Source of the DNA: Crenalkalicoccus sp.
GTDB taxonomy: Bacteria; Pseudomonadota; Alphaproteobacteria; Acetobacterales; Acetobacteraceae
Reading direction: 5' to 3'
Assembly (NCBI GenBank): GCA_035640795.1
Contig: DASQVL010000712.1
Location: 1 to 29,101 of the forward strand
DNA length: 29,101 bases
Of the stretch, positions 255 through 17,639 are shown piece after piece. Under the pieces are notes generated by a model that was not told where the DNA came from, searched no databases, and was given only the letters and a program-made list of their open reading frames with translations. How positions within the stretch are numbered: position 1 is the stretch's first letter; every line of letters begins with the position of its first letter. The position numbers and the translations under genes are program-made.

Positions 255-269
255 GCTATACCATATTAC

Positions 270-495: not shown

Positions 496-522
496 TTCAA
501 TTGAAGAGATAGGGCGGTCGCA

Positions 523-2608: not shown

Positions 2609-2975
2609 CTAACCGCCGACGAACGTGACCGTCTCGTCGAGCGGGGCGCGGCCCGTACGGACGTAACTCACCGTCGGGTCCTCGTACTCGATCGACATGC
2701 CGCAGAAGAGGATGAGCCCATCCGGGGGTGACAGGAACTCCGCGACCGTCTCGCGAACCTGCGACCACGCCATCTGCGTGCAACTGTGCAGCCCTTCGGC
2801 GCGGAGCAGCAGCATGACGGTCTGCAGATACATGCCGACATCGGCCCATTGGGGCCGGCCCAGGTCGCGGTCGATGTAGCAGAACAGGGCGGCGGGCGCG
2901 CCGAAACAGTTCCAGTTGGCGATGGCCGCCCGCTGGCGCGCCTCCCAGTCCTCGCGCGCAATGCCGAGCGCGCAC
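2609..2975 (-). pseudogene. 5'-truncated nitroreductase-family gene
   Basis: ALGIAREDWEARQRAAIANWNCFGAPAALFCYIDRDLG...DVGMYLQTVMLLLRAEGLHSC.Q.AW is the C-terminal half of a nitroreductase. The N-terminal SRRSVR/APS region is absent and the upstream frame is non-homologous. Confidence 0.75.
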
Positions 2976-3179
2976 AGGGGAGTTTGCAAGGTTCTGACCC
3001 TCGACCAGCGGCAACTTTGCAAAACCGAATACTTCCCAAGCGCCCGAGAACCGCAGAAAACCACCGCATTCAGCCTATTTCACGGCCGACTATCTACCGG
3101 GATGGGGCGGTGCGGACAGTGAAGAAGCCTGCTCATCAAGCTAGAGAACCAATCTTTAGTACAGTGGCTCTCATCAAGC

Positions 3180-3974
3180 CTATTTGGAGATTTCGTCCGG
3201 TTTGCGCTGACCTAAATAGGCACGGAAAATGCTGAGTTCCGTTTGGCAGGAAACACTGATGAACCCGACGGCCTTCAGGGCCCCAAGTATGGCATCTGGC
3301 GGCACACACGCTTCAATAGTGTCCCAGTAATACTGCATGAGCGTCCGTTCATGCCTTGCATGCAGCATGCGACTTAACCATGGCACGACGTGTCCTAAAT
3401 AAATCTTTAGCATGTTTTCCCCCATGCGATTTCCGGGCGCGGTGATCTCCATGATCAGCAGCCGACCTCCCGGCTTCAGTACCCGCAGAAACTCTGAAAA
3501 GACACGTTCTAGATCGGAGACGTGGCGTAGTGCATAGCCGATACTGACGAAGTCCACCGTTGCATCGCCGAGCGGGATCGCCTCGGCACGTGCCTGGACA
3601 AGACCGATGGAGAGCTGCCGCCTGGCCTGCGCCAGCATGCCCTCGCTCACGTCGAGCCCGATGACGTTACGCGGCTGGCCGGTGATGAAGCAGGCCTCCC
3701 GCGCGACCAAGCCGGTTCCGACGGCAACGTCCAGGACGCGGTCGCCAGGCTTCAGGCCCGCCGAAAGAAGGGCGCGCCGGCGATACCGCTGACCGGTCCC
3801 GAGGGAGAAAGCCGCGTTCAGTCGATCGTAGGACGCGGCGGTCCGATTGAAGAGCCGCCGGACGAATTGCTCCCGGCTTTCGCCATCCACCTGATAGCCC
3901 GGCAGCGGTCGATGTGGGGCACCCACCTGGTCACGCGGTTGTAACGCACTGGACAGGCGTTCATGGCGGGTCAT
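3180..3974 (-). CDS. Class I SAM-dependent methyltransferase (UbiE/MenG-like fold), 264 aa
   Basis: LF...A..YDR, VLDVAVGTG (motif I), GLDVSEGML, LRVLKPGGRLLI; RBS GAGAGG; divergent from the PKS operon. Confidence 0.9.
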   Translation of the reverse strand: MTRHERLSSALQPRDQVGAPHRPLPGYQVDGESREQFVRRLFNRTAASYDRLNAAFSLGTGQRYRRRALLSAGLKPGDRVLDVAVGTGLVAREACFITGQPRNVIGLDVSEGMLAQARRQLSIGLVQARAEAIPLGDATVDFVSIGYALRHVSDLERVFSEFLRVLKPGGRLLIMEITAPGNRMGENMLKIYLGHVVPWLSRMLHARHERTLMQYYWDTIEACVPPDAILGALKAVGFISVSCQTELSIFRAYLGQRKPDEISK

Positions 3975-4133
3975 AGCGGTCCTCTCATGCGGCGCGCGCC
4001 CCGGCAGCGCCGACGGACCAGTAGTCCCGTGACCCTGCCCCGGCCACCGCGCGAGGCGGGCGCCCCGGCACTGTTCGGACGGGGACCGGGTCGGTAAGGT
4101 CCGCCGCGGCTTCCATGGCGGCTAGGAGCGGGC

Positions 4134-5426
4134 ATGCGTCGATTGCGCCTCTTGGCGTCCCTCTGGTGTCTGTTGACTGCCGCCTGCGGTCCGGACGACT
4201 TCGATCAGCCCGGCAGCATCGACAACCGCGCCTACGCCTCGCTGTTTCCGTACTTTGCCGAATTCTGCGCCTTGTCGCAGATCAAGCAGAAGCAGGGCAT
4301 GGGCGCCGAGAGCCTGGGCGGGATCGGAGGACATGCGGTCTTTTACCTGAACGGGGCATGCCGTGCCGCCGAAGCCGGACAGACGACGATCCAGCTCTGC
4401 GACGAGCCGGGCGCGGAGCCGTCCGACGGCGTCGGCATCAGCATGAACGCGCATTTCCGCTTCGCGAAATGGGTGGCCACGCCCGGTCGCGATTTCTTCC
4501 TGCATGGCAATCTCGCCCTGGGGGCTCCACTCACGCGAGCCGACTACGATGCCGTGCAGGCCGAAGCCCGGCGGCTCGGCATCTATGACGGCGTCGAATT
4601 CCACGCCTCCGTCTTCGACGACATGCCGGCCGGAACCACGCGCGAAATCTGGAAGTACGAGGTGTCGGTCGGCACCGATTACGGCATCAGCCTCGGCCGC
4701 GGCCGGTTCTGCGCGCGGCTGCCGGTGAACCGCGAGCAGCTCGCCGCGATGATCGCGTACCTCAATGCCCAGAACGCACCGTACCGGGCGCGGGAGCGGG
4801 AGTTCGAGTGGAAGCTGGTGCAGGACAACTGCATTCACCTGGCCCATAACGCGCTCGCGGCTGCCGGCGTCTGGACGAAGTGGCCCACGGATCAGCCGCT
4901 GCTCCTGGCGGTCTTCGACTTCCCGGTCCCCCTCAACGAATTCGTCGCGCTGATGAGGAGGACTGACGATGCAGGGTTGCTCGACCTGCGAACCCTGCGC
5001 GCCGACACGCCGGCCAGCACGGCGCTCATCGAGTTCGATCAGTTGCCGCTGCGTCCGGGCGCCATCATGGAATCGCGCCCGCCGCAGTCGCCGAACGCAC
5101 TCTACGACACCGACGTGAAGCTCATCTTCTACGATGACCCGAACCTCGGTCGGTATCCGCGTTGGTTCCAGATGATCCGCGAGGATCCGGCCCGCTTCGA
5201 CCTGCACGCCAATCTGCGGCGAGTCCTAGAGCAGTACCGGAGCGCGATCGCCGCGCGGCGGTCGCTGTCGCCGCCGGAGGTCAGGCAGCGCGGCGGCGTT
5301 GGCGCCGGTGAGCAATCGGCCGCCTTCACCGAGACCGAGAAACGTCTCTACCGCCTCCTCGAGGCACGGGCTGACTGGATCGAGACGCAACTCGCCGACA
5401 TCACCATGAGCACGCCTCGACGCTGA
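4134..5426 (+). CDS. Uncharacterised lipoprotein, 430 aa, first gene of the PKS operon, with putative permuted papain-like His/Cys pair
   Basis: AGGAG RBS; signal peptide ending LTAAC (Cys18); GGH67AVFYL and EWKLVQDNC233IH motifs; stop abuts the next ATG (TGA-ATG at 5424-5429). Confidence 0.75.
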   Translation: MRRLRLLASLWCLLTAACGPDDFDQPGSIDNRAYASLFPYFAEFCALSQIKQKQGMGAESLGGIGGHAVFYLNGACRAAEAGQTTIQLCDEPGAEPSDGVGISMNAHFRFAKWVATPGRDFFLHGNLALGAPLTRADYDAVQAEARRLGIYDGVEFHASVFDDMPAGTTREIWKYEVSVGTDYGISLGRGRFCARLPVNREQLAAMIAYLNAQNAPYRAREREFEWKLVQDNCIHLAHNALAAAGVWTKWPTDQPLLLAVFDFPVPLNEFVALMRRTDDAGLLDLRTLRADTPASTALIEFDQLPLRPGAIMESRPPQSPNALYDTDVKLIFYDDPNLGRYPRWFQMIREDPARFDLHANLRRVLEQYRSAIAARRSLSPPEVRQRGGVGAGEQSAAFTETEKRLYRLLEARADWIETQLADITMSTPRR

Positions 5427-6182
5427 ATGCAGGCTTCCCGCACGCATCTCGTCCTGATCCCGACCTACAATACCGGAGCCGACCTGCTCCTGCGCACCGT
5501 ACGGGAGGCGCGCGACGTCTGGGCGCCGGTCTGGGTCGTCGTGGACGGCAGCACCGATGGGTCGGCCGCCGCGGTGACCGGGCTGGCGACGAGCGATGCG
5601 GATATCCGCCTGATCGAACTCGTGGAAAATCGCGGAAAGGGGGGAGCCGTCCTCGAAGGGCTTCGCGCCGCGGAGCGCGATGGCTTTACCCATGTCCTCG
5701 TGCTGGACGCCGACGGGCAGCATCCGACCGACCGGATCCGCGAGTTCATGACCCGCTCCTCGCGCGACCCGGACAGGATGATTCTGGGCGATCCCGTGTT
5801 CGGGCCCGACGCGCCGCGCGCGCGCGTGCTGGGCAGGCGGCTTTCGAATGTCCTCGTCGACCTGGAGACTCTGTGGGCCGGGGTGGGCGACTCGCTGTTC
5901 GGCTTCCGAGTTTATCCCTTGCGACCGCTGCTGGATATCATGTCGGAAACCAGATGGATGCGGCGCTACGATTTCGACGCGGAAGCTGTTGTCCGGCTTT
6001 TCTGGTTAGGCATTTTACCCGTGCGGGTCCGGGTTCCAGTGCGTTACTTGTCCATGGCTGAAGGGGGCGTCTCTCATTATCGCTATTTGCGGGACAACGC
6101 CCTGATAAGCTTCATGCATGCCCGACTGCTCCTTGCCTGGGCAGGTCGGCTGCCACGCCTGCTGCGACGCAGGCTTGGCTAG
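5427..6182 (+). CDS. Glycosyltransferase family 2 (aryl-polyene/xanthomonadin-cluster type), 251 aa
   Basis: LVLIPTYN, VVVDGSTDGS, NRGKGGAV, LDADGQH, GFRVYPL, RYDFDAE, GGVSHY motifs. Confidence 0.92.
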   Translation: MQASRTHLVLIPTYNTGADLLLRTVREARDVWAPVWVVVDGSTDGSAAAVTGLATSDADIRLIELVENRGKGGAVLEGLRAAERDGFTHVLVLDADGQHPTDRIREFMTRSSRDPDRMILGDPVFGPDAPRARVLGRRLSNVLVDLETLWAGVGDSLFGFRVYPLRPLLDIMSETRWMRRYDFDAEAVVRLFWLGILPVRVRVPVRYLSMAEGGVSHYRYLRDNALISFMHARLLLAWAGRLPRLLRRRLG

Positions 6183-6221
6183 AGCATTTTCCGTTCATAT
6201 GCGTTCACGGCAAATGCTCTA
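6180..6221. repeat. REP-like intergenic palindrome
   Basis: TAGAGCATTTTCCG ... CGGCAAATGCTCTA, 14-bp arms with one mismatch and a 14-nt loop, starting at the GT2 stop codon. Confidence 0.6.
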
Positions 6222-6414
6222 TCTCGTTGTTTGCAGAGCAGATTCACGCCTCCGGGCGATGCCGCCCTACGGCGATCTGCTCTAGGCATCGGTGCCGATT
6301 TCGCCCGCCGTAAAGCTCGGTTGCATCGGCCGCGGCGTCTGAGGCATACACGCGCCAAGAGTTGCAGCTGTGGCAGGAACAATGGAGAGGCGTTTGCCCA
6401 AATCGGCCCCGACT

Positions 6415-6726
6415 ATGGAACAATCGGCCGACGGTTCCGTCGGAAGCGACGACCGGCAAACTGCTGCGGAGAAGGTGCTCGCCGAGCTGATGGTGGAAAC
6501 GCTGCAACTCGACCTGGCGGCCGCCGATATCGACCCCGAGGCACCGCTATTCGGCGAGGGCCTGGGGCTGGACTCGATCGACGCCCTGGAACTCGCCCTG
6601 GCCGTGTCCCGCACCTATGGGGTCGACCTGCGATCGAGCGACGACCAGAACCGGCGCGTTTCCGCCTCGCTGCGAAGCCTCTCGGCCCACATCGAGGCCT
6701 CTCGCAAGGCTGCCCCGAAATTTTGA
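6415..6726 (+). CDS. Acyl carrier protein, XanC-like, 103 aa
   Basis: QTAAEKVLAELMVETLQL...IDPEAPLFGEGLGLDSIDALELALAVSRTYG...SLRSLSAHIEA; DS phosphopantetheine serine; closely resembles the xanthomonadin ACP as I recall it. Confidence 0.92.
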   Translation: MEQSADGSVGSDDRQTAAEKVLAELMVETLQLDLAAADIDPEAPLFGEGLGLDSIDALELALAVSRTYGVDLRSSDDQNRRVSASLRSLSAHIEASRKAAPKF

Positions 6727-8072
6727 ATCCACAGCCCGGGTTCAAGCTGGTCGAGCGTCCCGCCGGCGCCACGCTGTTCCGGCGCCGCGGACAGGCGATC
6801 GACGCGGCGGCCTTGCTCGCGGACGCGCGGGTTATGGCGGGGACCCTTCCGGCAAGCCGCTATCTGCTGAACCTGTGCCGTGACCGGTACGCCTTCACGG
6901 TCGGCTTCATCGCCGCAGTCAGAAGCGATCGCGTCTGCCTGTCGAGCGGCGATCGTTCGCCGGCCGGTCTCGCCGCCCTCGCCGCCGAGTTTCCGGACTG
7001 CGTCGCCGTCGTCGACGATGACGGGCAGGAGGTACCCCCCGGCATGGCCTCCCGCCGCGCGACCCCCGAAGGTGTCGCGGCCGCGGCGCCGGGCGACAAT
7101 ATCCGCGTGCCCGCGGACCACGTGGCGGCGATCGTCTTCACCTCCGGCAGCACCGGGCGCCCGGTCGGCCATCCCAAGCGGTGGGGAGCCCTGGTTCAGC
7201 GCAGCATCGCGGCAGGACAGCAATTCGCACTGACGGAGCAGGCTCCGCCGACGATCATCGGAACCGTGCCGCCACAGCACATGTACGGGTTCGAGACCAC
7301 GGTCCTGCTGCCGCTGCACGCCCCGGCGTCCAGTTGGTGCGGGCCTGCCTTCTTCCCGGACGACGTGCAATTGGCCTGCGCATCGGTCCCGCCATCCCCC
7401 TTCGTGGTCACCACCCCGTTGCAGATCCGGGCGCTGCTCGCCGTCGATGCCGACCTGCCAGGCCTCGGCGCCATCATCTCCGCCACCGCGCCACTCGACA
7501 CCTCGCTTGCCACCGCGGCCGAGGAGCGCTGGAAGACGCGCGTCCTGGAGATCTTCGGCGCCACGGAGGTCGGCTCGATCGCCAGCCGCCGTACGCTGGA
7601 TGGCGAAGCCTGGTCCCTCTATCCGGGCGTCACTCTCCATGCCGAGGCCGATAGGGTGACCGCGCTGCTGCCCCTGACGGCGCCGCATCCGCTGGATGAC
7701 GAGGTCGAGTTGCTCGGCGACCGGCGCTTCCGGCTCATCGGCCGGCGTACGGATATCGTAAAGCTCGGCGGCCGCCGCGCCTCCATTGCCGGCCTGAATC
7801 GGATCCTGCTGGACATCGACGGCGTCGAGGACGGCACCTTCATTCTGCCGGAAGGCGAGACCGGCGCCACGACGGAGCGGTTGATGGCGGTCGTCGTGGC
7901 GCCGGGGCGCGATGCCGACAGCATCATCGGCGAATTGCGCAGGCGACTCGACCCTCTCTTCGTGCCGCGCCGCATCGTCCGGGTCGACAGCATGCATCGC
8001 AATGACGTCGGCAAGCTTTCGCATGAGCGGGTGCTGGAGATGCTGCGGGCGGTATCAGGCGACACCGCATGA
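6723..8072 (+). CDS. Acyl/aryl-AMP ligase (XanA2/ApeH-like starter-unit:ACP ligase), about 449 aa
   Basis: FTSGSTGRPVGHPK P-loop, GTVPPQHMYGFE, IFGATEVG, GRRTDIVKLGGRR, GKL. TTG start inferred from the TTGA overlap with the ACP stop. Confidence 0.88.
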   Translation: MNPQPGFKLVERPAGATLFRRRGQAIDAAALLADARVMAGTLPASRYLLNLCRDRYAFTVGFIAAVRSDRVCLSSGDRSPAGLAALAAEFPDCVAVVDDDGQEVPPGMASRRATPEGVAAAAPGDNIRVPADHVAAIVFTSGSTGRPVGHPKRWGALVQRSIAAGQQFALTEQAPPTIIGTVPPQHMYGFETTVLLPLHAPASSWCGPAFFPDDVQLACASVPPSPFVVTTPLQIRALLAVDADLPGLGAIISATAPLDTSLATAAEERWKTRVLEIFGATEVGSIASRRTLDGEAWSLYPGVTLHAEADRVTALLPLTAPHPLDDEVELLGDRRFRLIGRRTDIVKLGGRRASIAGLNRILLDIDGVEDGTFILPEGETGATTERLMAVVVAPGRDADSIIGELRRRLDPLFVPRRIVRVDSMHRNDVGKLSHERVLEMLRAVSGDTA

Positions 8073-8389
8073 TGCAGCCGCTCGGCGCGTTCAGCGTCCC
8101 GGCGGATCATCCCTGCCTGCCGGGCCATTTTCCGGGATCGCCGATCGTGCCCGGCGTGCTGTTGCTGGATGAAATCGCCGGCCTGGTGCTGCGGCACCAT
8201 CCCGGCTTCCGCTTCGCGGCCGTCGCGCAGACGCGCTTCCTGCTACCCGTGCTGCCGGACCAGGTCGTGCACGTGGCCGCTGCGCCGTCGTCCACCGCGA
8301 TGGGAACGATGCTGCGCGTTGCCTTCTCCGGCGAGGTCGCCGGCACCCTTGTCGTGAAGGGCAGCCTGGATCTCAGGGCCGCCGCCTGA
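8069..8389 (+). CDS. FabA/FabZ-type hotdog dehydratase (ApeI-like), 106 aa
   Basis: HPCLPGHFPGSPIVPGVLLL motif; ATGA overlap. Confidence 0.88.
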   Translation: MMQPLGAFSVPADHPCLPGHFPGSPIVPGVLLLDEIAGLVLRHHPGFRFAAVAQTRFLLPVLPDQVVHVAAAPSSTAMGTMLRVAFSGEVAGTLVVKGSLDLRAAA

Positions 8390-9291
8390 TGTCCGCGCAC
8401 TGGGCCACGCGGGTCGAGGGCGGCAGCCTCCGTGCGTTGCGGCTCCTGCTTCGGCTCGTCCTGCTGCTCGGCCCGCGCCTCAGCGCGATGCTGTTGCTGC
8501 CGCCCGTCACGGCCTGGTACCTGGCCAGTTCCGCGGACGCGCGCGCCGCCTCCCGGGATTTCCTGAGCCGCGTCCGGGGGCGGCCGGCAGGCCTCGCCGG
8601 CGTGGCGCGCCATCTGCATGCATTCGCCAGCGCAATCCTCGACCGTGTCTTCTTCCTCGCGCGCCGGACGCGGTCCTTCGACATCCGGGTCGAGGGCCTG
8701 GATCACGTCGAGCGGATCCTGGAGCGCGGTGCGGGCTGCATCATGCTCGGCGCCCATCTCGGCAGCTTCGAAGTCCTGCGAAGCCTCGGCCGGCAGGCGC
8801 CGGTCACGGTGCATCCGGTGATGTACCGCCGCAACTCCGGCGCGCTGACCGCGGTGCTCGACACCCTTGCGCCGGACCTCAGCGCCAACATCATCGAGAT
8901 CGGCGAGACCGACAGCATGCTGAAGGCCAAGGAAGCGCTGGAGCGGGGTGAGATCGTCGGACTCCTGGCCGACCGCTCCCCGCAGGGCGAAAGGACGATC
9001 CCCGTGCCGTTCCTCGGCAGCCCGGCGCCGTTTCCCGTCGGCCCCTTCATCCTGGCCGCTGCCCTGGGCGCACCGGTGGTCCTGTTCTTCGGACTGCGCA
9101 CCGGCGCCCGGCGCTATACGATCCGCTTCGAAGCCTTCCAGGACAGGATCGTCCTGCGCCGTGCCACGCGCGAGGCGGATCTGGCGACCATCATCGCGAC
9201 CTATGCCAGCCGTGTTGAAGACATATGCCGCGCGCACCCGTATGACTGGTTCAACTTCTTTCCCTTCTGGGAGATCGGCGGCAATGCCTGA
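8389..9291 (+). CDS. LpxL/HtrB-family acyltransferase, 300 aa
   Basis: HW...EGG start, AHLGSFE (HxxxxE/D), GLLADR, VPFLG.PA.FP.GP, PYDWFNFFPFW. Confidence 0.9.
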   Translation: MSAHWATRVEGGSLRALRLLLRLVLLLGPRLSAMLLLPPVTAWYLASSADARAASRDFLSRVRGRPAGLAGVARHLHAFASAILDRVFFLARRTRSFDIRVEGLDHVERILERGAGCIMLGAHLGSFEVLRSLGRQAPVTVHPVMYRRNSGALTAVLDTLAPDLSANIIEIGETDSMLKAKEALERGEIVGLLADRSPQGERTIPVPFLGSPAPFPVGPFILAAALGAPVVLFFGLRTGARRYTIRFEAFQDRIVLRRATREADLATIIATYASRVEDICRAHPYDWFNFFPFWEIGGNA

Positions 9292-9889
9292 CTGTCCGGG
9301 CCGCCGGAGCCTGCTGGTCCTCATGGGGTGCGTCGCCGCGCCTTCGGTGCTGCCACCGCGCGCGGCGGCGGTCGCCAGCGACGTCCTGGACATCGCGGCG
9401 CTGATGCAGGCGATGGCGGCCGTGCCCGAACGCCACCAGCGCTTCCGCGAGGAGCGCCGGTTCACGGCCCTGAGCTTCCCGCTCATCCTGACGGGCACAC
9501 TGCATTACTGGCGGCCCAGTCGCTTCGAGAAGCGCACCGAGACGCCTGAGCGCGAATTGCTGAAGGTCGATGGCGACAGGATCGAACTGACGGTCGGCAA
9601 CGAGCCGACGCAGCACATCGATCTCGGCCGCTCGCCGGAAATGCAGGCTTTGGTGAACGCCTTCCGGGCGCCGCTCAGCGGGGACCTGGCGACGCTGCAG
9701 CGATATTTTCGCATGGAGGGCAGCGGCAGCCCTGAACGATGGCTGCTGAAGCTCCAGCCGCTCGAGCCCCGCGCCGCGCGGCTGCTGCGGGAAGTGCGCC
9801 TGGGCGGCGTTGCCGCCGAGGTGCGGAGCACGGTGTGGGTACAGGGCAACGGGGACGAGTACGCCATGCAGACCGAGCCCCTGCCTTGA
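9284..9889 (+). CDS. LolA-like periplasmic carrier protein, 201 aa
   Basis: N-terminal RRSLL signal-like segment; F.EERRF.AL..PL...G.L.Y.RP..FEK.TETP and W.LKLQP pattern of the LolA-like genes of aryl-polyene clusters. Confidence 0.8.
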   Translation: MPDCPGRRSLLVLMGCVAAPSVLPPRAAAVASDVLDIAALMQAMAAVPERHQRFREERRFTALSFPLILTGTLHYWRPSRFEKRTETPERELLKVDGDRIELTVGNEPTQHIDLGRSPEMQALVNAFRAPLSGDLATLQRYFRMEGSGSPERWLLKLQPLEPRAARLLREVRLGGVAAEVRSTVWVQGNGDEYAMQTEPLP

Positions 9890-12225
9890 GGCCGGGCTTG
9901 CGACGCCGGGCCTGGCCCGTCCTGCTGGCGCTCACGCTGTCGGTCGTCGCGCTCCTGGCCGTTCTGCTGCTGATGGTTCGCGTCCGGGCTGACATGGCCG
10001 ACTTCCTGCCCCGTGGCGAGACGCCGGAAGCGCGGCTCCTGCTGCGGGAAGCCGGCATCGGCGCGGCCACCGGGATCATGCTCGTGGGCATCGATGGCGC
10101 GCCCCCTGCGGAGCTCGCGCGGATCAGCCGAAGCATGGCCGCTGATCTGTCCGGGAACCCCCTCTTCGCGATGGTGCTGGCCGGCGACGCGACCCTGCCG
10201 GATGCCGCGGCCATGGAGCGGTTGTTCGCGCGTCGCTATCTGCTCTCGGGGGCGGAGGCGGACACCCTGTTCTCCGAGGAGGCCTTGCGCAGCGGGCTGC
10301 GCGGCCTGCTGCGGCAATTGGGATCCTCCACGGCCTCGCTCGCTGCGGAGCTCGGGCTCGCCGACCCGACCGGCGCCTTCATGGGCATGCTGCGCGGCTG
10401 GGTGGGCGCCAGCCCGGTGCGGAGCGTGGATGGTGCGTGGCTCGCGGCCGAGCGCGACCGCGCGCTGCTGATCGCCCGCACCCGCGCGGGCGGGATGGAC
10501 ATTCCCGCGCAGCAGGCGGCGCTGGAGGCGCTCAGGGCCGCCTTCGCCGCCGCCGCGCCCGGCCCGGCTCGGCTGATCGTGACGGGACCGGCCGTCTTCG
10601 CGCAGGATGCGGCGCAGGCCATCCAGCGCGACGTGGAGCGGATCTCGCTCCTCTCCATCCTCCTGGTCGCACTTCTGCTCTGGTGGCGCTTCCGCTCCCT
10701 CCTGGTCATCGCCGCCGTGGCCGTGCCGGTCGTGCTGAGCATCGCCGTCGCCGCGCTGGTCGTGCAACTCGCCTATGGCGTCGTGCACGGCGTTGCACTC
10801 GGCTTCGGCATCACCATGCTCGGCGTCTCGATGGATTACCCCGTGCTGATGATCGGCCACCGCAAGGCGGGCGAGGCCGCGACGGCCACGCGAACGCGCA
10901 TCGGCCCTGCCTTCATCCTGGCGGTCGGCACGGCGACGCTGGGCCTCTCTGCCATGGTCTTCTCCGGCTTTCCCGGCATGGCGCAGCTCGGCGTCTTCTC
11001 CGCTATCGGCCTCGTCTCGGCCGCGCTGGCGACCTGGTGGATCCTGCCGCGCATCGTGATTGCGGCGGAACTGGCGCCGGTGGCCGCCGGCGATGCGCGC
11101 TGGCTCGCGCCGCTCGAAGGGCTGCGGCGCTGGCGCATGCTCGGCCTGCTGCCACTGCTTGCCGCCATCGCCTATCTAGGCATCCGCGGCGGGCCGGACT
11201 GGGAGGGCGACCTGCAGAAGCTCAGCCCCGTGCCGGCCAGGTCGCGGGCGCTCGAGGCGGAACTGCGCGCCGAACTGGGCGCGGGCCAGGACAGCAGGCT
11301 GATCCTGGTGCGGGGGGACATCCAGGCCGTGCTGCGCCGCCAGGAAGCGCTGCTTCCGCTGCTCACCGAATTGCAGGCGCAAGGCGCGCTCCGCGACGCC
11401 GAGATGGCGGCGAGGCTAATCCCCAGCGCGGCGCTCCAGCAGGCCCGGCAGGCGAACCTCCCGGACCGGGCGACCCTGCTCCACCGCCTGGCGGGCGCCG
11501 CGTCCGGCCTGCCGTTCCGTCCCGAGGCCTTCACACCATTCCTCGACGCCGTCGATCGCAGCCGCGACATGCCTCCCCTGCTGCCCGCCGACCTGGCCGG
11601 CACGCCGATCGGCCTGCGGCTCGCGCCGTTGCTGATGGAGCGGGATGGCGAATGGGTGGGGCCGGTCGTGCTGAATGGCGTGCGCGATCCGGCGGCCATC
11701 CGCGCGGCGGTCGCGGGGCAGGCGGGGGTCGTCTATACCGACGTCTCGGTGGAACTGGGCACGATCCTGAGCGGCTACATGCGGCAGGCGTGGCAATGGC
11801 TGGGCTGGAGCGGGCTGCTCGTCCTGGTCGTGCTGCTGGTCGGCACGCGGGACGTGGTGCGGGTCCTGCGCGTGCTCGGATCGGTGGGGGCCGCGATGCT
11901 CGTGGCCGTGGCGGTGCTCACGCTCAGCGGCGCGCAGCTTTCTCTCGTGCATCTCATCGCGCTGCAGCTTGTTGCCGGGGTGGGCCTTGACTACGCCCTG
12001 TTCTTTTCGCGCAAGTTGCTGGATGCCGAGGAGCGGCTGCGCACCCTGCGGACGCTGGTCACGTGCAACGCCATGACATTGCTGACATTCGGTCTGCTGG
12101 TGTTCTGCGAGACGCCGCTGCTGCATGATATGGGGTGGACCGTGGCGGTCGGGTCCGTGCTGGCCATGGGATTCAGCTTCCTGTTCTCCGGCGAGGCTCC
12201 GCGACCGGACGCGGCGAGAGGTTGA
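9886..12225 (+). CDS. MMPL/RND-family exporter, about 779 aa
   Basis: Two hydrophobic helix bundles with G.S.DY and GVGLDYALF motifs. TTG start inferred from the TTGA overlap. Confidence 0.88.
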   Translation: MRPGLRRRAWPVLLALTLSVVALLAVLLLMVRVRADMADFLPRGETPEARLLLREAGIGAATGIMLVGIDGAPPAELARISRSMAADLSGNPLFAMVLAGDATLPDAAAMERLFARRYLLSGAEADTLFSEEALRSGLRGLLRQLGSSTASLAAELGLADPTGAFMGMLRGWVGASPVRSVDGAWLAAERDRALLIARTRAGGMDIPAQQAALEALRAAFAAAAPGPARLIVTGPAVFAQDAAQAIQRDVERISLLSILLVALLLWWRFRSLLVIAAVAVPVVLSIAVAALVVQLAYGVVHGVALGFGITMLGVSMDYPVLMIGHRKAGEAATATRTRIGPAFILAVGTATLGLSAMVFSGFPGMAQLGVFSAIGLVSAALATWWILPRIVIAAELAPVAAGDARWLAPLEGLRRWRMLGLLPLLAAIAYLGIRGGPDWEGDLQKLSPVPARSRALEAELRAELGAGQDSRLILVRGDIQAVLRRQEALLPLLTELQAQGALRDAEMAARLIPSAALQQARQANLPDRATLLHRLAGAASGLPFRPEAFTPFLDAVDRSRDMPPLLPADLAGTPIGLRLAPLLMERDGEWVGPVVLNGVRDPAAIRAAVAGQAGVVYTDVSVELGTILSGYMRQAWQWLGWSGLLVLVVLLVGTRDVVRVLRVLGSVGAAMLVAVAVLTLSGAQLSLVHLIALQLVAGVGLDYALFFSRKLLDAEERLRTLRTLVTCNAMTLLTFGLLVFCETPLLHDMGWTVAVGSVLAMGFSFLFSGEAPRPDAARG

Positions 12226-13442
12226 CGCCAGTGACGCACAGGATGGCGCCCCTTGTGGTTACCGCCGGCACCGCGGTCAGCGCGCTTGGCCGGGGCGTGG
12301 ACGCGCACCTCCAGGCCTTGAGTGAGCAGCGCGGCGGCCTGCGGCCCAACGACTTCGAACCCGCTGTCGGGGGCTGGATCGGCCGGGTCGATGGGGTCGA
12401 GGACCACCGCCTGCCCGATCACCTCGCCGCCTATGACTGCCGCAACAATCGCCTCGCCGCGATCGCCCTCGCCGTGGACGGCTTCGCGGAGGCCATCGCC
12501 GCGGCCCGCGCCACCTACGGCGCGGGGCGGATCGCTGTCGTCCTCGGCACCAGCACCTCGGGCATCACGGCCGCCGAGGAGGCCTATCGTCAGCGCGACG
12601 CGGGTGGTGACCTTCCGGCCTCCTTCGACCTGGAGCATACGCAGGACCTCGGTTCGCTCACGCGCTTCGTCCGAACGGCGCTCGGTCTGCGGGGGCCCGC
12701 ATTCACGGTCTCCACAGCCTGCGCCTCCTCGGCCCGGACCTTCATCGACGCCGCGAATCTCATCCGGGCGGGCCTGTGCGACGCGGCCGTGGTGGGGGGC
12801 GCCGACAGCCTGTGCCGGCTGACACTGCACGGCTTCGCGGCGCTCGACCTGATTTCGGCGGAGGCCTGCCGGCCCTGCGATGCCGCACGGACCGGGATCT
12901 CCATCGGTGAAGCCGCGGGCTTCGCGCTGCTGGAGCGTGCCGAGGCCGCGCCGCGTGGCGACGCCCCGGATCGGCGCTTCGCCTTGCTGGGCGCCGGCGC
13001 CAGCAGCGACGGGCATCACATGTCGTCGCCGCACCCCGAAGGCGCGGGCGCCATCGCGGCGATGCGCGGCGCCCTTGCCAGCGCGGTCATGGACCCTGGC
13101 GAGGTCGATTGGGTGCACCTGCACGGCACCGGCACGCCGGCGAACGACGCGATGGAGGATCTCGCCGTCGCCGCCGTGTGCGGGACGGAGACGCCCTGCA
13201 GTTCCACGAAAGGCTACACCGGGCATACGCTCGGCGCGTGCGGGATCCTGGAGACGCTGATGGCCGGTGCCTGCTTCGCCCACGGCATCATCCCGGGCTG
13301 CCTCGGCGTGACGCAACTCGATCCCGGTTTCCGCTCCCGCGTGCTGACGGCGCCGCTGCATCGAACGCCGCGGACCATCCTGAGCAACGCATTCGGCTTC
13401 GGCGGCACGAATTGCAGCCTGCTGCTGGGCGGCGTCGCATGA
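12222..13442 (+). CDS. Beta-ketoacyl-ACP synthase (KS); start TTG 12222 or ATG 12243
   Basis: GTSTSG, STAC*ASS catalytic Cys, HGTGT and STKGYTGHTLGA His residues, SNAFGFGGTN end. Confidence 0.93.
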   Translation: MTPVTHRMAPLVVTAGTAVSALGRGVDAHLQALSEQRGGLRPNDFEPAVGGWIGRVDGVEDHRLPDHLAAYDCRNNRLAAIALAVDGFAEAIAAARATYGAGRIAVVLGTSTSGITAAEEAYRQRDAGGDLPASFDLEHTQDLGSLTRFVRTALGLRGPAFTVSTACASSARTFIDAANLIRAGLCDAAVVGGADSLCRLTLHGFAALDLISAEACRPCDAARTGISIGEAAGFALLERAEAAPRGDAPDRRFALLGAGASSDGHHMSSPHPEGAGAIAAMRGALASAVMDPGEVDWVHLHGTGTPANDAMEDLAVAAVCGTETPCSSTKGYTGHTLGACGILETLMAGACFAHGIIPGCLGVTQLDPGFRSRVLTAPLHRTPRTILSNAFGFGGTNCSLLLGGVA

Positions 13443-14251
13443 CAGCGCTCGAGGCATGGGTCATCGGCGTGTCCATTTGGGGGCCGGGGCTGGAAGGCTG
13501 GGAGCGCAGCCGCCCCGTGCTGGCCGGGGCGGAGCCGTACGCATGCCGGGAGTCGGCGCCGCCCGCCGCGATGGCGCTTCCCGCGGCCGAGCGGCGGCGC
13601 TGCGGCCCCGTTGTGCGCCTGGCCATGACGGTCGCCGGGGACGCCGCCGCGAGTTCCGGGTTGGATCCGGGCGTGCTGCGAAGCGTCTTCGCGAGCAGCA
13701 ACGGCGACGGGACCGTGGTCGGCAGCATCCTCGAGACCCTGGCCGCTGCCGGGCCGGAGGAGCGACCGGTGTCGCCGACCCAGTTCCACAATTCAGTCCA
13801 CAACGCGCCGGCCGGCTACTGGTCGATCGCCCATGCCAATGCGCAGCCTTCGGTCTGCATCGGGCTGTACGACGACACCTTTCCGGCAGCGCTGGTCACG
13901 GCCATTGCGGAGGTCGTCAACGACGGCGTCCCAGTCCTGATGTGCGCCTACGACTACCCCATGCCGCTGCCCCTGGGTCGGAAGCGGCCCACCCTGGCGC
14001 CGTTCGGCCTCGGCCTCGTCCTTGCGCCGCGCCAGGACGGGCGGGGGATGGCGACGCTGTCGCTGCGCTATGACCCTGACCAGGATAGCGCTCCACCCCT
14101 GCCGCAGACCGAGGCGCTGCGCGGCCTCGCCGCGGGCAATGCGGCGGCGCGCGGCCTCGGGCTGCTCGAGGCGCTGGCACGAGGCGGCACGGAATTGCAA
14201 CGTCTCCCCTATCTCGATGGATCGCTCGCAGTGCACGTCCGCCATGCTTGA
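13439..14251 (+). CDS. Ketosynthase chain-length factor (catalytically inactive KS partner), 270 aa
   Basis: PAAERRR, VFASSNGD, SPTQFHNSVHNAPAGYWSI; no catalytic Cys motif; ATGA overlap. Confidence 0.88.
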   Translation: MTALEAWVIGVSIWGPGLEGWERSRPVLAGAEPYACRESAPPAAMALPAAERRRCGPVVRLAMTVAGDAAASSGLDPGVLRSVFASSNGDGTVVGSILETLAAAGPEERPVSPTQFHNSVHNAPAGYWSIAHANAQPSVCIGLYDDTFPAALVTAIAEVVNDGVPVLMCAYDYPMPLPLGRKRPTLAPFGLGLVLAPRQDGRGMATLSLRYDPDQDSAPPLPQTEALRGLAAGNAAARGLGLLEALARGGTELQRLPYLDGSLAVHVRHA

Positions 14252-14678
14252 TCCTGGCCAGATCGCCGGCCTGCTGCCGCATGCGGGTTCCATGATCCTG
14301 CTCGACGCGATCGAAGGCTGGGACGCGAAGGAGATTCGCTGCCGCACGGAAAGCCACCTGCGGGCGGACAACCCGCTGCGCAGGGACGGCCGCCTCGCGG
14401 CCATTGTGGGCGTCGAATACGGCATGCAGGCAGCGGCGGCGCATGGGGCGCTCACCGCCGGCGATGCGAAGCCGGCAGCTGGCCTGCTTGTCGGCCTGCG
14501 CGGCGTCGCCCTGTCGGAGGAGCGGCTGGACGATGCCGCCTTCGGCTGCCTGCGTATCACGGCCACCCTGGAACATGCCGAAGAGCATGGAGCGGTCTAT
14601 GGCTTCACGATCGCCGCGGATGACGGGCGCCTCCTTGTGAGCGGCCGTGGCACGATCGCGCGGGTCGGCGCCCCCTGA
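14244..14678 (+). CDS. Second hotdog-fold dehydratase (ApeP-like), 144 aa
   Basis: LLPHAGSMILLD, NPL...G.L, EYGMQAAAAHG motifs. Confidence 0.87.
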   Translation: MLDPGQIAGLLPHAGSMILLDAIEGWDAKEIRCRTESHLRADNPLRRDGRLAAIVGVEYGMQAAAAHGALTAGDAKPAAGLLVGLRGVALSEERLDDAAFGCLRITATLEHAEEHGAVYGFTIAADDGRLLVSGRGTIARVGAP

Positions 14679-15394
14679 AGCGGGCCCTCGTCACCGGCGG
14701 CGCGAGCCCGCTCGGCGCGGCGATCTGCCGGAGGCTTTCCGCGGCCGGGCTGCATGTCATCGTGCATGCGCATGCCAGCCTGGCCCGCGCCCATGAGGTG
14801 GTGGAGGAGCTTCAGGCGCAGGGCGGCAGCGCGGAAGCGATCGCCGCCGATCTCAGGGACATGACGGCGACACGTGAGGCGATGGAGGCCCTGATCGGCG
14901 CGGGGGTTCCCCAGGTCGTCGTCCACAACGCCGGCACGCATGACGATGTGCCGATGGCGGGCATGTCCGAGACGCAATGGCGCAACGTCATCGACGTGTC
15001 GCTGGGCGGCTTCTTCGCCACCGTGCAGCCCCTGCTGCTGCCGATGATGCGCACGCGCTGGGGCAGGATCATCGCGGTCTCTTCGGTTACGGCGCTGCTC
15101 GGCAATCGCGGCCAGGCAAATTACGGGGCCGCCAAGGCGGGACTGATCGGCGCGGTGAAATCGCTGGCGCGCGAGGTCGCAAGCCGGGGCGTCACGGTGA
15201 ACGCGGTCGCGCCTGGCATTATCGCGTCCCCGGCCGTGGACGCGGCCATGGATGCGAAGCAGATCGCCGAGATCGTCCCCATGCGGCGCGCCGGCGAGCC
15301 GGCGGAGGTCGCGGATCTCATCGCGTTCCTCGCGTCGCCGGAGGCTGCCTACATCACGGCCCAGGTCATCTCCATCAATGGCGGGATGGCCTGA
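14675..15394 (+). CDS. fabG: 3-oxoacyl-ACP reductase (SDR), 239 aa, apparent CTG start
   Basis: KRALVTGGASPLG Rossmann motif lies upstream of the track ORF start; also VHNAG, VSS, NYGAAK, VNAVAPG, INGG. In-frame TGA at 14621 with no ATG/GTG/TTG before CTG 14675. Confidence 0.9.
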   Translation: MKRALVTGGASPLGAAICRRLSAAGLHVIVHAHASLARAHEVVEELQAQGGSAEAIAADLRDMTATREAMEALIGAGVPQVVVHNAGTHDDVPMAGMSETQWRNVIDVSLGGFFATVQPLLLPMMRTRWGRIIAVSSVTALLGNRGQANYGAAKAGLIGAVKSLAREVASRGVTVNAVAPGIIASPAVDAAMDAKQIAEIVPMRRAGEPAEVADLIAFLASPEAAYITAQVISINGGMA

Positions 15395-15421
15395 CCCCTG
15401 CAGCAGGAGTTGAGGACCCGC

Positions 15422-16717
15422 ATGCCTGACCAAGACATCCTCGACGTGGCCATCATCGGCGGAGGCCCTGCCGGCTCCACCGCCGCCGCGCTCCTCGCCA
15501 AGGCGGGGCGCCGTGTCGTCGTCCTCGAGCGGGAGGCGCATCCCCGCTTCCACATCGGCGAGAGCCTGCTGCCGCGAAACCTCGACATCCTGGAGCGGCT
15601 CGGTGTCCTTGATGACGTGCGCAGGATCGGGGTGCACAAGCCAGGTGCGGAGTTCGTCTCCGACCGGACCGGGCGCAGTTGCCGCTTCCCCTTCGACCAG
15701 GCGCTCAACAAGGCGCAGACCTCCGCATTCCAGGTCAAGCGCTCCGATTTCGACGCGCTGCTCTTCGACAATGCGCGCCGGTCCGGGGCCAGGGCGCTCG
15801 AACGGACGCGGGTGACGGAGGTTCACCTCGACCAGCACGACCGCGGCGTATGGCTCCGCGCGCGCGGCGCGGACGGGGATTCCCTGGAGTTCAAGGCGCG
15901 ATACCTGCTGGACGCGTCGGGCCGCGACACCTTCCTCGCGGGCCGCATGCGGGTGAAGGAGTCGAACCGCTACAACAACACAGCCGCGGTCTACGGCCAT
16001 TTCGAGGGTGTCGAGCGGCGCCAGGGGAATCTCGACGGCTACATCAGCATCCACCTGGCCGAGGATGGCTGGTTCTGGATGATCCCGCTGCCGGGCGGCC
16101 TGATGAGCATCGGCTTCGTGGGCAACCAGTCGGCATGGAAGGGCCGCACCGGCACGCCGGAGGAGTTGTTCCAGGCGCGCATCGCCGGCAGCCCGAGCGT
16201 CGCCGAGCGCACGCAGCACGCAAGCCTCGTCTCGGAAGTCTACAGCACCGCGAATTACAGCTACCGCGCGCGGCAGGGTCATGGACCCAATTTCCTGATG
16301 ATCGGCGACGCCTACGGCTTCGTGGATCCCATGTTTTCCACCGGTGTGCTGATGGCCATGACCGCGGGCGAACTTGGGGCGGAGGCGGCGGATGTCTGGC
16401 TCGACGACCCGGCCCGCGGCACGCGCCTCGCGGCGCGCGCCAATCGTGAGCTGGCGCGCGCGATGGATCGCATCGGCTGGCTTATCTATCGGATCAACGA
16501 TCCCATCATGCGGTCGCTCTTCATGGCGCCGAGCAATGCCTTCTGGATGAGGGACGGAATCATCAACATGCTCGCTGGAAACTTGCGCGGAGATCCACGC
16601 GGTGTGCTGCCGATTCTTTCGTTCAAGGCCGTCTTTCATACTTTGTCAGCCCTGCATCGCTGGGGCTTGGGCCCGCAGGTCGCGGAACAGCCTGCTGAGA
16701 TCCTCTTGAGATCCTGA
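15422..16717 (+). CDS. Flavin-dependent halogenase (XanJ-like), 431 aa
   Basis: IIGGGPAG FAD motif, HPRFHIGESL, conserved Lys in VHKPGAEF, WFWMIP (WxWxIP), IGDAYGFVDPMFSTGV. Confidence 0.85.
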   Translation: MPDQDILDVAIIGGGPAGSTAAALLAKAGRRVVVLEREAHPRFHIGESLLPRNLDILERLGVLDDVRRIGVHKPGAEFVSDRTGRSCRFPFDQALNKAQTSAFQVKRSDFDALLFDNARRSGARALERTRVTEVHLDQHDRGVWLRARGADGDSLEFKARYLLDASGRDTFLAGRMRVKESNRYNNTAAVYGHFEGVERRQGNLDGYISIHLAEDGWFWMIPLPGGLMSIGFVGNQSAWKGRTGTPEELFQARIAGSPSVAERTQHASLVSEVYSTANYSYRARQGHGPNFLMIGDAYGFVDPMFSTGVLMAMTAGELGAEAADVWLDDPARGTRLAARANRELARAMDRIGWLIYRINDPIMRSLFMAPSNAFWMRDGIINMLAGNLRGDPRGVLPILSFKAVFHTLSALHRWGLGPQVAEQPAEILLRS

Positions 16718-16746
16718 GAGGCGGTTTCTAGAATTCGCGTGCAAGC

Positions 16747-16809
16747 CGTCAGGCTGCGCCAGGGCGTGCCTTCGCGCAGGAAGCGGCGCAGCGTCGCCAC
16801 GGCCAGAAC
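16747..16809 (-). mobile_element. Short scar of an IS5-family transposase N-terminal region
   Basis: VLAVATLRRFLREGTPWRSLT matches the ...LR.G.PWR.L motif of IS5-type transposases; no start and no continuation. Confidence 0.5.
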
Positions 16810-16932
16810 GTCGACCCACTTCCGATATCTCGAGCGTCTCCTCGGGGCTGTAGTTCAGGCATTATGTTTATTCCAGACCCTTCGACTGATCTGCAACCAA
16901 GCCAACGCCGTGCGCCGCCCGCTCAGCTCCCT

Positions 16933-17637
16933 TCAATCGTCCAGGAATTTTGCGAATGCTTCGACCGGCTCGCGCGGGGATTGTAGCTGGTTTGCAGGCG
17001 CCTCCGGATCCACCCTTCCCAGAGCCATTCCACACACTATCATTTCCTGGTCGGGCACATTCAGCAATCTCCGAATAATCACATGATAGCTCTTGAACGC
17101 GGCCTGCGGACAGGTGTCAAGCCCGCGGCCCCGGGCCGAGATCATGATGTTCTGCATGAACATGCCAAGATCAAGCCAGCTGCCGTAACCCAACGTCCGA
17201 TCCAATGTGAAGATCATGCCGACCGGAGCACCGAAGAAGTCGTAGTTCCTGCGGTGCTGTCGTGCCGTCGCCTCTCGATCGCCTTTGACGATGCCGAGAA
17301 GCCCGTACAGCGCCCAGCCGATCTGTCGGCGCCGGTCGATATAGGGCGAGCGCCATTCCCGCGGGTAGTAGGCATATTCGGCCTCCGGCTCCTCGCCGCG
17401 GGCGTGGGATGCGGATATCTCGGCCGACAGCCGGTCGCGCGCCGCGCCTGTCACCACATACACCCGCCAGGGCTGGGTGTTGGTCATGCTCGGGGCACGG
17501 CTGGCCACCGCTAGGATCTCCCGTATGGTCGTGGCCGAAACCGGATCGGGCAGGAAACCGCGGACGCTGCGGCGCGAAGTGATGACCGAGTTGACCAGCT
17601 GCGCGGCGCTCGGCTCCGCCTCCGGGAACGGCCTCAC
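16933..17637 (-). CDS. Nitroreductase-family flavoprotein, about 234 aa
   Basis: SRRSVRGF, RAPSMTNTQPW, FFGAP, DLGMFMQNIM, TCPQAA; GTG start 8 nt after GGAG, beside the MaoC stop. Confidence 0.9.
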   Translation of the reverse strand: MRPFPEAEPSAAQLVNSVITSRRSVRGFLPDPVSATTIREILAVASRAPSMTNTQPWRVYVVTGAARDRLSAEISASHARGEEPEAEYAYYPREWRSPYIDRRRQIGWALYGLLGIVKGDREATARQHRRNYDFFGAPVGMIFTLDRTLGYGSWLDLGMFMQNIMISARGRGLDTCPQAAFKSYHVIIRRLLNVPDQEMIVCGMALGRVDPEAPANQLQSPREPVEAFAKFLDD

Positions 17638-17639
17638 CG

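Follow-up and report, generated by a model that had tools for sequence, protein, structure and literature searches.

Does a type II polyketide synthase (PKS) cluster with its own halogenase gene, found in a soil alphaproteobacterium, encode a new kind of pathway, or is it a family version of one already known? The question was raised by positions 3180-16717 of contig DASQVL010000712.1 of Crenalkalicoccus sp., a stretch of 29,101 nucleotides that is called the window here and makes up a whole 29.1-kb contig of a soil metagenome-assembled genome (MAG; 835 contigs, 4.49 Mb, 84% completeness, 3.1% contamination). The region consists of a divergent methyltransferase gene and a 13-gene overlap-coupled operon, which encodes a 430-amino-acid (aa) lipoprotein-like protein (LP430), a GT2 glycosyltransferase, an acyl carrier protein (ACP), an adenylate-forming ligase, two hotdog proteins (DH1 and DH2), an acyltransferase, a LolA-like carrier, an MMPL exporter, a ketosynthase (KS), a truncated chain-length-factor-like partner (CLF), a ketoreductase (KR), and a halogenase. 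A first-pass annotation, made from the letters alone, had read this set as a xanthomonadin/aryl-polyene (APE) type cluster in an apparently non-Xanthomonas host and had proposed a distinct product.

Gene identities, motifs, synteny, distribution, and co-occurrence were observed in this study. In our judgement the cluster quite probably encodes the xanthomonadin/arcuflavin-type pathway to an aryl-polyene lipid, in a version that Acetobacteraceae have inherited vertically. It is real but not new in kind, because a survey of 2021 and papers of 2013-14 already describe such clusters, and its taxon is no exception.

Relationship to known aryl-polyene clusters

Relatives of the KS were collected by tblastn of PLSDB, and the proteins of whole clusters were compared by BLASTP at 1e-8. 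The KS of the window was 52-55% identical to those of Azospirillum ramasamyi, Skermanella, and Burkholderia/Caballeronia and to a lone Variovorax KS, in comparison with about 41% for a second tier from E. coli, Klebsiella, and Ralstonia (40.5% for E. coli ApeO). The Variovorax paradoxus match was rejected as a cluster comparator, because the KS stood alone there with no cluster around it. In the KS tree, which was built without Xanthomonas sequences, all Acetobacteraceae KS formed one clade (support 95), the Azospirillum/Burkholderia/Variovorax KS were its sister, and E. coli ApeO lay far outside; the window was sister to Siccirubricoccus sp. G192 (support 98). Five window proteins, namely the CLF, DH2, the ligase, the halogenase, and the methyltransferase, had orthologues in the Azospirillum/Burkholderia clusters and no match in the E. 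coli ape cluster, where the counterparts of the CLF, DH2, and the ligase were too diverged for BLASTP at this threshold. The KS identities, the orthologue set, and the tree therefore place the cluster in the xanthomonadin/arcuflavin branch, which agrees with the assignment to a xanthomonadin-like aryl-polyene type II PKS made in the first-pass annotation.

The proteins of the Azospirillum and Burkholderia clusters resembled those of the window to different degrees. Besides the KS, the KR (53-61% identity), GT2 (60%), and methyltransferase (50-51%) were the most similar, and in the Azospirillum cluster both the ACP and GT2 were 60% identical to those of the window. The values were 44-45% for the CLF, 46-48% for DH2, 44-45% for the halogenase, 41-43% for the acyltransferase, 39% for the ligase, and 34-36% for the MMPL exporter.

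The loci of Azospirillum ramasamyi and Burkholderia sp. SFA1 have the architecture published for the arc (arcuflavin) clusters of the Azoarcus sp. BH72 type, which runs ACP, ligase, dehydratase, acyltransferase, LolA, exporter, polysaccharide deacetylase, methyltransferase, KS, CLF, dehydratase, KR, GT2, LPLAT, halogenase, and MipA. The core order of ACP, ligase, dehydratase, acyltransferase, LolA, MMPL, KS, CLF, dehydratase, and KR is common to the window and the arc-type clusters, and so are GT2, the halogenase, and the UbiE-like methyltransferase. In comparison with the Azospirillum type, however, the window and Siccirubricoccus sp. G192 lack the polysaccharide deacetylase, the PlsC-type LPLAT, MipA, a 225-aa protein between ACP and ligase, and the XanB2-type chorismatase, and the window also lacks the second methyltransferase of the Azospirillum/Burkholderia clusters. 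By tblastn, no polysaccharide deacetylase, PlsC-type LPLAT, MipA/OmpV, 225-aa protein, or XanB2-type chorismatase was found anywhere in the MAG. Other Acetobacteraceae loci hold varied subsets of these accessory genes. Conversely, LP430 is an addition of the window, without a homologue in the Azospirillum/Burkholderia clusters at 1e-8.

The pig/xan cluster of Xanthomonas campestris and the pigment cluster of Lysobacter enzymogenes are likewise type II PKS systems in which a KS is paired with a truncated CLF-like partner. They share with the window an ACP (XanC), an aryl:ACP ligase (XanA2), a FabG3-type KR, dehydratases, and a GT2-like gene, and a halogenase is present in both the window and the Xanthomonas cluster. 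The xanthomonadin-class product is a methylated, halogenated aryl polyene bound to a membrane lipid. In Xanthomonas, a gammaproteobacterium, XanB2 encoded inside the cluster supplies 3-hydroxybenzoic acid (3-HBA), whereas none was found in the window, whose host is alphaproteobacterial. The ape clusters of E. coli, Xenorhabdus, and Acinetobacter follow a shared logic, and their ACP, glycosyltransferase, acyltransferase, MMPL, and KR are homologous to those of the window (37.5% identity between GT2 and the glycosyltransferase of the E. coli cluster). However, the E. coli cluster has a second KS (ApeR), the thioesterase ApeK, two ACPs, and a DUF3261 lipoprotein, whereas the window has a single ACP and none of the others. 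Conversely, the E. coli cluster encodes neither a halogenase nor a UbiE-type methyltransferase.

Core enzymes

The best solved relatives of the KS in the PDB were 6qsp_A (247 bits) and 7f28_B (235 bits), while FabF chains scored at most 164 bits. The search output names these chains only generically; we take them to be the ApeO-type (aryl-polyene) KS of Xenorhabdus and Acinetobacter, respectively. The Cys-His-His motifs TACASS, HGTGT, and GHTLGA were conserved in the alignment. The sole PDB matches of the CLF were the chains co-deposited with these KS, 7f28_A (2e-8) and 6qsp_B (0.0066). A truncated CLF-like protein, ORF16, has been described (PMC3691225; PMC3949708). An equivalent of Q166 of Lysobacter ORF16 was also sought in the CLF, but the candidate Gln residues, in SPTQF and NAQPS, vary among orthologues and none was assigned.

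The best NCBIfam match of the ligase was the 4-coumarate-CoA ligase family TIGR02372 (111.7 bits, below its cut-off), and no PDB match was obtained at 1e-10. DH1 matched FabZ (1.5e-6) and Xenorhabdus 6qsr_A (0.0023) in the PDB. For DH2 no Pfam, NCBIfam, or PDB sequence match was found. Its profile of 79 sequences gave a weak hhalign match to E. coli ApeP (probability 66.6%, E 5.4e-5), with an ApeP copy that was read through a frameshift and carried an X at the break. The motif (I/V)PHxGxMxLLD is conserved in DH2 and common to DH2 and E. coli ApeP, and DH2 is 46% identical to an Azospirillum gene product annotated as hydroxymyristoyl-ACP dehydratase. By sequence, DH2 is thus a likely, though weakly shown, ApeP-like dehydratase. 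Of the two dehydratases claimed earlier, DH1 stands as FabZ/ApeI-like, with low scores, whereas DH2 is a likely candidate on the strength of its profile match and its position.

The Rossmann motif of the KR lies upstream of the first ATG, GTG, or TTG of its frame, and a full-length protein was obtained only from CTG 14675, which sits in a CTGA overlap with the stop codon of DH2. At this position 32 of 57 relatives have ATG. The CTG of the window could be a start codon of a rare kind, a true mutation with a weakening effect, or a consensus error of the MAG. CTG starts occur in bacteria.

Occurrence in Acetobacteraceae and earlier reports

The KS query returned 118 relatives among species-representative genomes, and 80 of these were kept as related loci. 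These were almost all from named Acetobacteraceae/Roseomonadaceae, including Siccirubricoccus, Komagataeibacter, Acetobacter, Bombella, Saccharibacter, Tanticharoenia, Roseomonas and its allies, Belnapia, and Craurococcus, and most of them carried the whole syntenic cluster. Siccirubricoccus sp. G192 was the closest relative, with a KS 75% identical to that of the window. In an even sample of 200 species of the GTDB family to which the MAG belongs, a KS orthologue (E<=1e-80) was present in 71 species and in 54 of the 164 high-quality genomes, a tally that includes the MAG itself. A halogenase orthologue was present in 76 of the 200 genomes and in 69 of the 71 KS-positive ones (97%), although in some of them it was not linked to the cluster. 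Groups in the KS tree correspond to genera, as expected if descent was mainly vertical.

These data do not support the earlier view that the cluster is unusual for its taxon: more than a third of the sampled species have the KS, nearly always together with the halogenase. Such clusters are also in print. Among Acetobacteraceae type strains, 44% of the acidophilic and 29% of the acetous ones had APE clusters in the survey of Guzman and Vilcinskas 2021 (PMC8776678), which already reported them with "a probable halogenase". Novelty in a non-Xanthomonas host could not be upheld either, because Wang et al. 2013 (PMC3691225) and Schoner et al. 2014 (PMC3949708) had described xanthomonadin-like clusters with a halogenase gene not only in Xanthomonas but also in Variovorax, Azoarcus, and Dechloromonas. 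On the other hand, the literature search returned no report of a halogenated aryl polyene from Acetobacteraceae, so the statement that none has been characterised from this family stands.

Two irregularities were noted among the loci. MAGs labelled Janthinobacterium lividum and Burkholderiaceae carried Acetobacteraceae-type clusters nested in the Acetobacteraceae KS clade, and were probably mis-binned or mislabelled. In Siccirubricoccus sp. G192 the whole cluster appeared a second time close to one end of the 5.48-Mb contig, but this copy was rejected as a duplication; it was split into many high-scoring segment pairs and is probably an untrimmed, error-rich circular overlap.

Halogenase and methyltransferase

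The halogenase matched the PDB entries 8zop (186 bits), ChlB4 (176), 3nix (168), CmlS (162.5), CndH (3e1t, 162), PltA (145), and 5bva (125), the last of which is presumably Bmp2. Several phenol/pyrrole-type halogenases among these matches (ChlB4, CmlS, CndH, PltA, and Bmp2) act on carrier-protein-bound substrates. Four motifs were located, GGGPAGS at 17, K77, GWFWMIP at 220, and GDAYGFVDPMFSTG at 299 (GDAxxFxDPxFSxG), and all four were conserved in 48 orthologues; K77 aligned with the Lys of 8zop and ChlB4. In the halogenase tree the window and Siccirubricoccus sp. G192 fell in a clade (support 100) with Belnapia, Siccirubricoccus, Humitalea, and Roseococcus. The KS of these four genera belong to the other major KS clade, and their halogenase gene lies downstream on the opposite strand. 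The halogenase and KS trees are thus not fully congruent; the halogenase has evidently moved between cluster lineages, and its history is partly separate from that of the core genes.

Of the 80 related loci, 31 have the methyltransferase gene next to the cluster. The first-pass annotation had taken this divergent gene, together with an extra lipoprotein, as a sign of a distinct product. However, its orthologues lie inside the Burkholderia SFA1 and Azospirillum clusters at the 50-51% identity given above, and the halogenase is shared with them as well, so neither gene marks a distinct product. Xanthomonadins themselves are methylated and halogenated. LP430 alone is lineage-specific.

It is possible, but unlikely, that the aryl-polyene lipid is normally non-halogenated, with the halogenase silent, limited by halide, or acting as some other flavoprotein. 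No bromine is present in the Lysobacter pigment, the halogenase gene arcA is part of the Azoarcus arc cluster although arcuflavin is described without reference to a halogen in the text of its paper (PMC3949708), and family scans identified no flavin reductase partner in the window's cluster. In addition, the matched halogenase frames of four family genomes were each interrupted by a single in-frame TGA, which may reflect pseudogenes or errors of sequencing. Against this, GxGxxG, the catalytic-type Lys, WxWxIP, and the second flavin adenine dinucleotide (FAD) motif are retained across the 48 orthologues, and most of the nearest solved structures listed are halogenases by name. The halogenase also accompanies the KS in 69 of 71 genomes even when unlinked, which argues for purifying selection on an activity related to the cluster.

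Two further variations were seen among the related loci. Saccharibacter has two tandem halogenase paralogues, and the interval from DH2 to the halogenase contained no detected KR gene in either Bombella or Saccharibacter.

LP430, a lipoprotein-like protein with a predicted papain-like core

LP430 had at least 452 homologues but no Pfam or NCBIfam match even at E<=5, including NLPC_P60, LRAT, and Lnb_N/DUF4105. The invariant residues were C18 of the lipobox, H67, H107, and the stretch N232-C233-x-H235-L-A-H-N (NCxH motif). In the AlphaFold (AF2) model (pLDDT 84.6, pTM 0.88), H67 opens strand 67-73 and C233 opens helix 233-243. A fold search with the full-length protein was swamped by matches to the helical tail, and the core domain was refolded and searched alone. 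Only 12 of 48,161 chains reached Z>=2, and nearly all of them belonged to the papain-like NlpC/P60-LRAT-PPPDE clan: TseH (Z 8.4), MARTX RID (6.6), YiiX (6.3), and the Cys peptidase 3kw0 (5.5), followed by DUF862 (4.0), CLN5 (3.7), PLAAT4 (2.7), and Aichivirus 2A (2.2). The list of predicted matches is coherent, though the Z values are modest. Foldseek of the full model against the PDB gave no match at E<=0.001, and the structural similarity to Lnb_N was only TM 0.34.

The clan to which TseH, YiiX, MARTX RID, CLN5, and PLAAT/LRAT belong shares with the LP430 model the core fold, with the His on an early strand and the Cys at the start of a later helix. However, LP430 is far larger (430 aa) and has a long C-terminal helical extension, a lipoprotein signal, and no Pfam membership. 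Several of the clan members matched are lipid acyltransferases or hydrolases. From the model, LP430 is most likely a periplasm-facing papain-like Cys-His lipid hydrolase or transacylase that would act on an exported lipid.

Within the family sample LP430 occurred in 34 of the 200 genomes, of which 29 were KS-positive and 4 more were halogenase-positive, against a background of 35% KS-positive genomes. It lay within 10 kb of the KS or halogenase in 19 of the 34. Three arrangements were found: LP430 precedes GT2, as in the window; it immediately precedes the KS, in clusters of a divergent type; or it immediately follows the halogenase. We infer that LP430 is a facultative accessory enzyme of these clusters.

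Proposed pathway and its weighing

The pathway was reconstructed by homology to XanA2/XanC, ArcT, the Ape enzymes, and the Xenorhabdus APE lipids, and its substrate, order of steps, halide, final structure, and the role of LP430 are deductions of this kind. The ligase would adenylate a hydroxybenzoate-type aryl acid and load it on the dedicated ACP. The KS/truncated-CLF pair would then carry out iterative malonyl extension, and trans double bonds would arise from the beta-keto groups through the FabG-type KR and the two hotdog proteins, so that an aryl polyene is built up on the ACP. Its aryl or polyene part may then be decorated by the UbiE-like methyltransferase and the flavin-dependent halogenase. 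The LpxL-like acyltransferase and GT2 would attach the polyene to a glycolipid-type anchor, and the MMPL pump and the LolA-like carrier would move the lipid to the outer membrane, where the pigment would protect against light and oxidants. Three published results are relevant here: XanA2/XanC are a 3-HBA:ACP ligase and its ACP (PMC6859482), ArcT adenylates 3-HBA and 4-substituted benzoates (PMC3949708), and the end products of the Xenorhabdus APE system are galactosamine-phosphate-glycerol lipids (bioRxiv 10.1101/2020.12.19.423268).

The starter unit of the Acetobacteraceae clusters is likely a hydroxybenzoate, because some members of the family (Bombella, Saccharibacter, Acetobacter orientalis, A. 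cibinongensis, and one MAG) have a gene for a XanB2/FkbO-type chorismatase within the cluster locus. An aromatic ammonia-lyase (PF00221) was considered and rejected: the MAG and four relatives have one copy each, which is most likely HutH.

Several observations weigh against this pathway. The XanB2/FkbO N-domain (PF21168), UbiC (PF04345), and the Rv2949c-like lyase (PF01947) were all undetected in the MAG, where, at 84% completeness, the absence of a XanB2-type gene is no proof; nor were they found in Siccirubricoccus G192, Muricoccus, Humitalea, and Komagataeibacter, of which several assemblies are complete or near-complete. The xanthomonadin-type label rests on Azospirillum/Burkholderia clusters that match the published arc architecture by annotation, not on Xanthomonas sequences. 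The assignment of DH2 from its sequence is weak, and a product need not be halogenated merely because the cluster has a halogenase gene. With CTG as its start codon the KR, a core enzyme, may be poorly expressed, unless this base stems from an error of assembly. LP430 homologues also occur in unrelated contexts, e.g. in Belnapia, and no product has been reported for any Acetobacteraceae member (PMC8776678).

Some of these points could be taken to mean that the cluster of the window is decaying or non-functional, having lost its starter supply and accessory genes and suffered damage to the KR start; we consider this improbable. The KR codon, the undetected XanB2, UbiC, and Rv2949c-like genes, and the undetected PlsC-type LPLAT, MipA, polysaccharide deacetylase, and 225-aa protein of other family clusters would agree with decay, as would the broken genes and the low-GC block that adjoin the cluster. 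However, the 14 open reading frames (ORFs) are intact, the catalytic motifs are conserved, and the 4-nt overlaps are preserved. Siccirubricoccus sp. G192 has the same reduced gene set, also without XanB2, so the reduction is a lineage trait and not decay. As for the KR, CTG starts are used in bacteria and a single base of a MAG may be a consensus error, and the genome is only 84% complete. Less probable still is a specialised fatty-acid or lipid pathway that makes no pigment (e.g. an unusual unsaturated acyl chain for an outer-membrane lipid): the core enzymes are all relatives of type II fatty acid synthesis, the starter enzyme was not found in the MAG, and the ligase substrate is undefined, but the KS is nearer to the APE-type chains 6qsp and 7f28 than to FabF, the truncated CLF matches only the chains co-deposited with those KS, a XanB2-type chorismatase is encoded in the cluster of some family members, and the architecture-identical Azoarcus and Lysobacter clusters are genetically tied to aryl-polyene pigments.

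An aryl-polyene lipid of the xanthomonadin/arcuflavin type is thus the preferred product. A bolder and quite doubtful extension is that the Acetobacteraceae clusters make an undescribed halogenated, methylated aryl-polyene lipid, that the starter in the lineage of the window comes from neither XanB2 nor UbiC, and that LP430, as a lipid-anchored papain-like Cys-His enzyme of the periplasm, transacylates or trims the exported polyene lipid, which would be a step new to APE systems.

For the window itself these results are mostly deflationary, the cluster being typical of its family and previously in print. The points of somewhat higher interest are the product, the missing starter enzyme, and the LP430 family. 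The freshest element is LP430 itself, a conserved, unannotated papain-like lipoprotein that may be a new accessory enzyme in pathways of this kind. Few types of biosynthetic cluster are as common in Gram-negative bacteria as those for aryl polyenes. To our knowledge, few of the products have been described, and Alphaproteobacteria have yielded none of them. In Acetobacteraceae, one conserved version is present in about one third of the species, among them acetic acid bacteria used in industry and symbionts of bees. The halogenase accompanies the KS in 97% of carriers, and cultivable ones, such as Komagataeibacter xylinus K2G30, Acetobacter garciniae TBRC 12339, Belnapia rosea, and Siccirubricoccus sp. 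G192, allow a direct search for a halogenated pigment lipid.

Gene organization and surroundings

The gene map was obtained by ORF calling with codon-position GC content and by family scans (Pfam and NCBIfam). The data showed that every function claimed earlier, from the ACP to the halogenase, is found at its place (Table 1).

Table 1. Genes of the cluster region, with positions in the window and supporting family matches
Gene product	Position	Strand	Evidence
UbiE/COQ5-family S-adenosylmethionine (SAM) methyltransferase, divergent from the operon	3180-3974	-	PF01209, 110.9 bits
LP430, 430-aa lipoprotein-like	4134-5426	+	No Pfam/NCBIfam match; papain-like core by fold search
GT2 glycosyltransferase (ApeJ/ArcE-like)	5427-6182	+	PF00535, 76.5 bits
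Dedicated ACP	6415-6726	+	NF006617, 116.7 bits (cut-off 70); GLDSID serine motif
Adenylate-forming ligase (XanA2/ArcT/ApeH-like aryl:ACP ligase)	6723-8072	+	PF00501, 62.4 bits; TTG start overlapping ACP stop
Hotdog dehydratase 1, DH1 (FabZ/ApeI-like)	8069-8389	+	PF07977, 28.7 bits; PF22818 ApeI-like, 18.9 bits
LpxL-type (lipid A biosynthesis family) acyltransferase	8389-9291	+	PF03279, 54.2 bits
LolA-like lipid/lipoprotein carrier	9284-9889	+	PF19574 LolA_3, 63.2 bits; weak NF053544 flexirubin LolA2 match
MMPL/RND-type exporter	9886-12225	+	PF03176, 62.1 bits; HpnN-like TIGR03480 match
ApeO-type KS	12243-13442	+	NF006618, 489.5 bits (cut-off 407)
Truncated chain-length-factor-like partner, CLF (ApeC/Lysobacter ORF16 type)	13439-14251	+	PF13723 Ketoacyl-synt_2, 94.5 bits
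Hotdog protein 2, DH2 (putative ApeP-like dehydratase), 144 aa	14244-14678	+	No family match
FabG-type KR	14675-15394	+	NF004200, 324.5 bits (cut-off 273); apparent CTG start
Flavin-dependent halogenase (phenol/pyrrole, carrier-protein-type branch)	15410-16717	+	PF04820, 95.6 bits

The description of the operon as tightly coupled was also confirmed. Eight junctions overlap by 1-8 nt (ATGA, TTGA, or CTGA type), including the computed ATGA overlap of the CLF start with the KS stop, LP430 and GT2 abut directly, and the only gaps are 233 bp ahead of the ACP and 15 bp ahead of the halogenase. An alternative TTG start of the KS at 12222 would overlap the MMPL stop. Rfam and tRNA scans of the window gave no match, and a promoter/terminator scan of 2900-17300 gave nothing informative.

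The GC content was about 70% across the cluster, in comparison with 53% in the first 2 kb of the window. The earlier guess of an Acetobacteraceae-like host was right: the MAG belongs to the same GTDB family as Siccirubricoccus sp. G192, an assignment that rests on genome-level classification and goes beyond the similarity of the cluster. Among sequencing runs, the single strong match was a soil metagenome of 2017, which is probably the source of the MAG, and no RNA run was listed.

The low-GC part of the window (1-2040, 53% GC) encodes a 505-aa apiosidase-like/collagen-binding-domain protein on the minus strand. Nitroreductase-family sequences flank the cluster, as a C-terminal fragment at 2609-3064 and a full gene at 16933-17667 (33% mutual identity), and neither is conserved beside the cluster in the 80 related loci. 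The segment 16933-26012 also encodes three class III coenzyme A (CoA)-transferases, a MaoC/mesaconyl-CoA hydratase-like protein, an acyl-CoA dehydrogenase, a GntR/UTRA regulator, a TctC receptor, and an HpcH-type lyase, and looks like a CoA-dependent dicarboxylate catabolic set.

Elsewhere in the same MAG, a 3.6-kb contig (C535) carries a second MMPL gene (61% identity) and, arranged as in the window, a second KS gene (71%) that is truncated at the contig end. The other KS-like matches in the MAG were only 37-38% identical to the KS of the window. The MMPL-KS pair of C535 points either to another cluster of this kind in the organism or, the contamination of the MAG being 3.1%, to a relative binned together with it.

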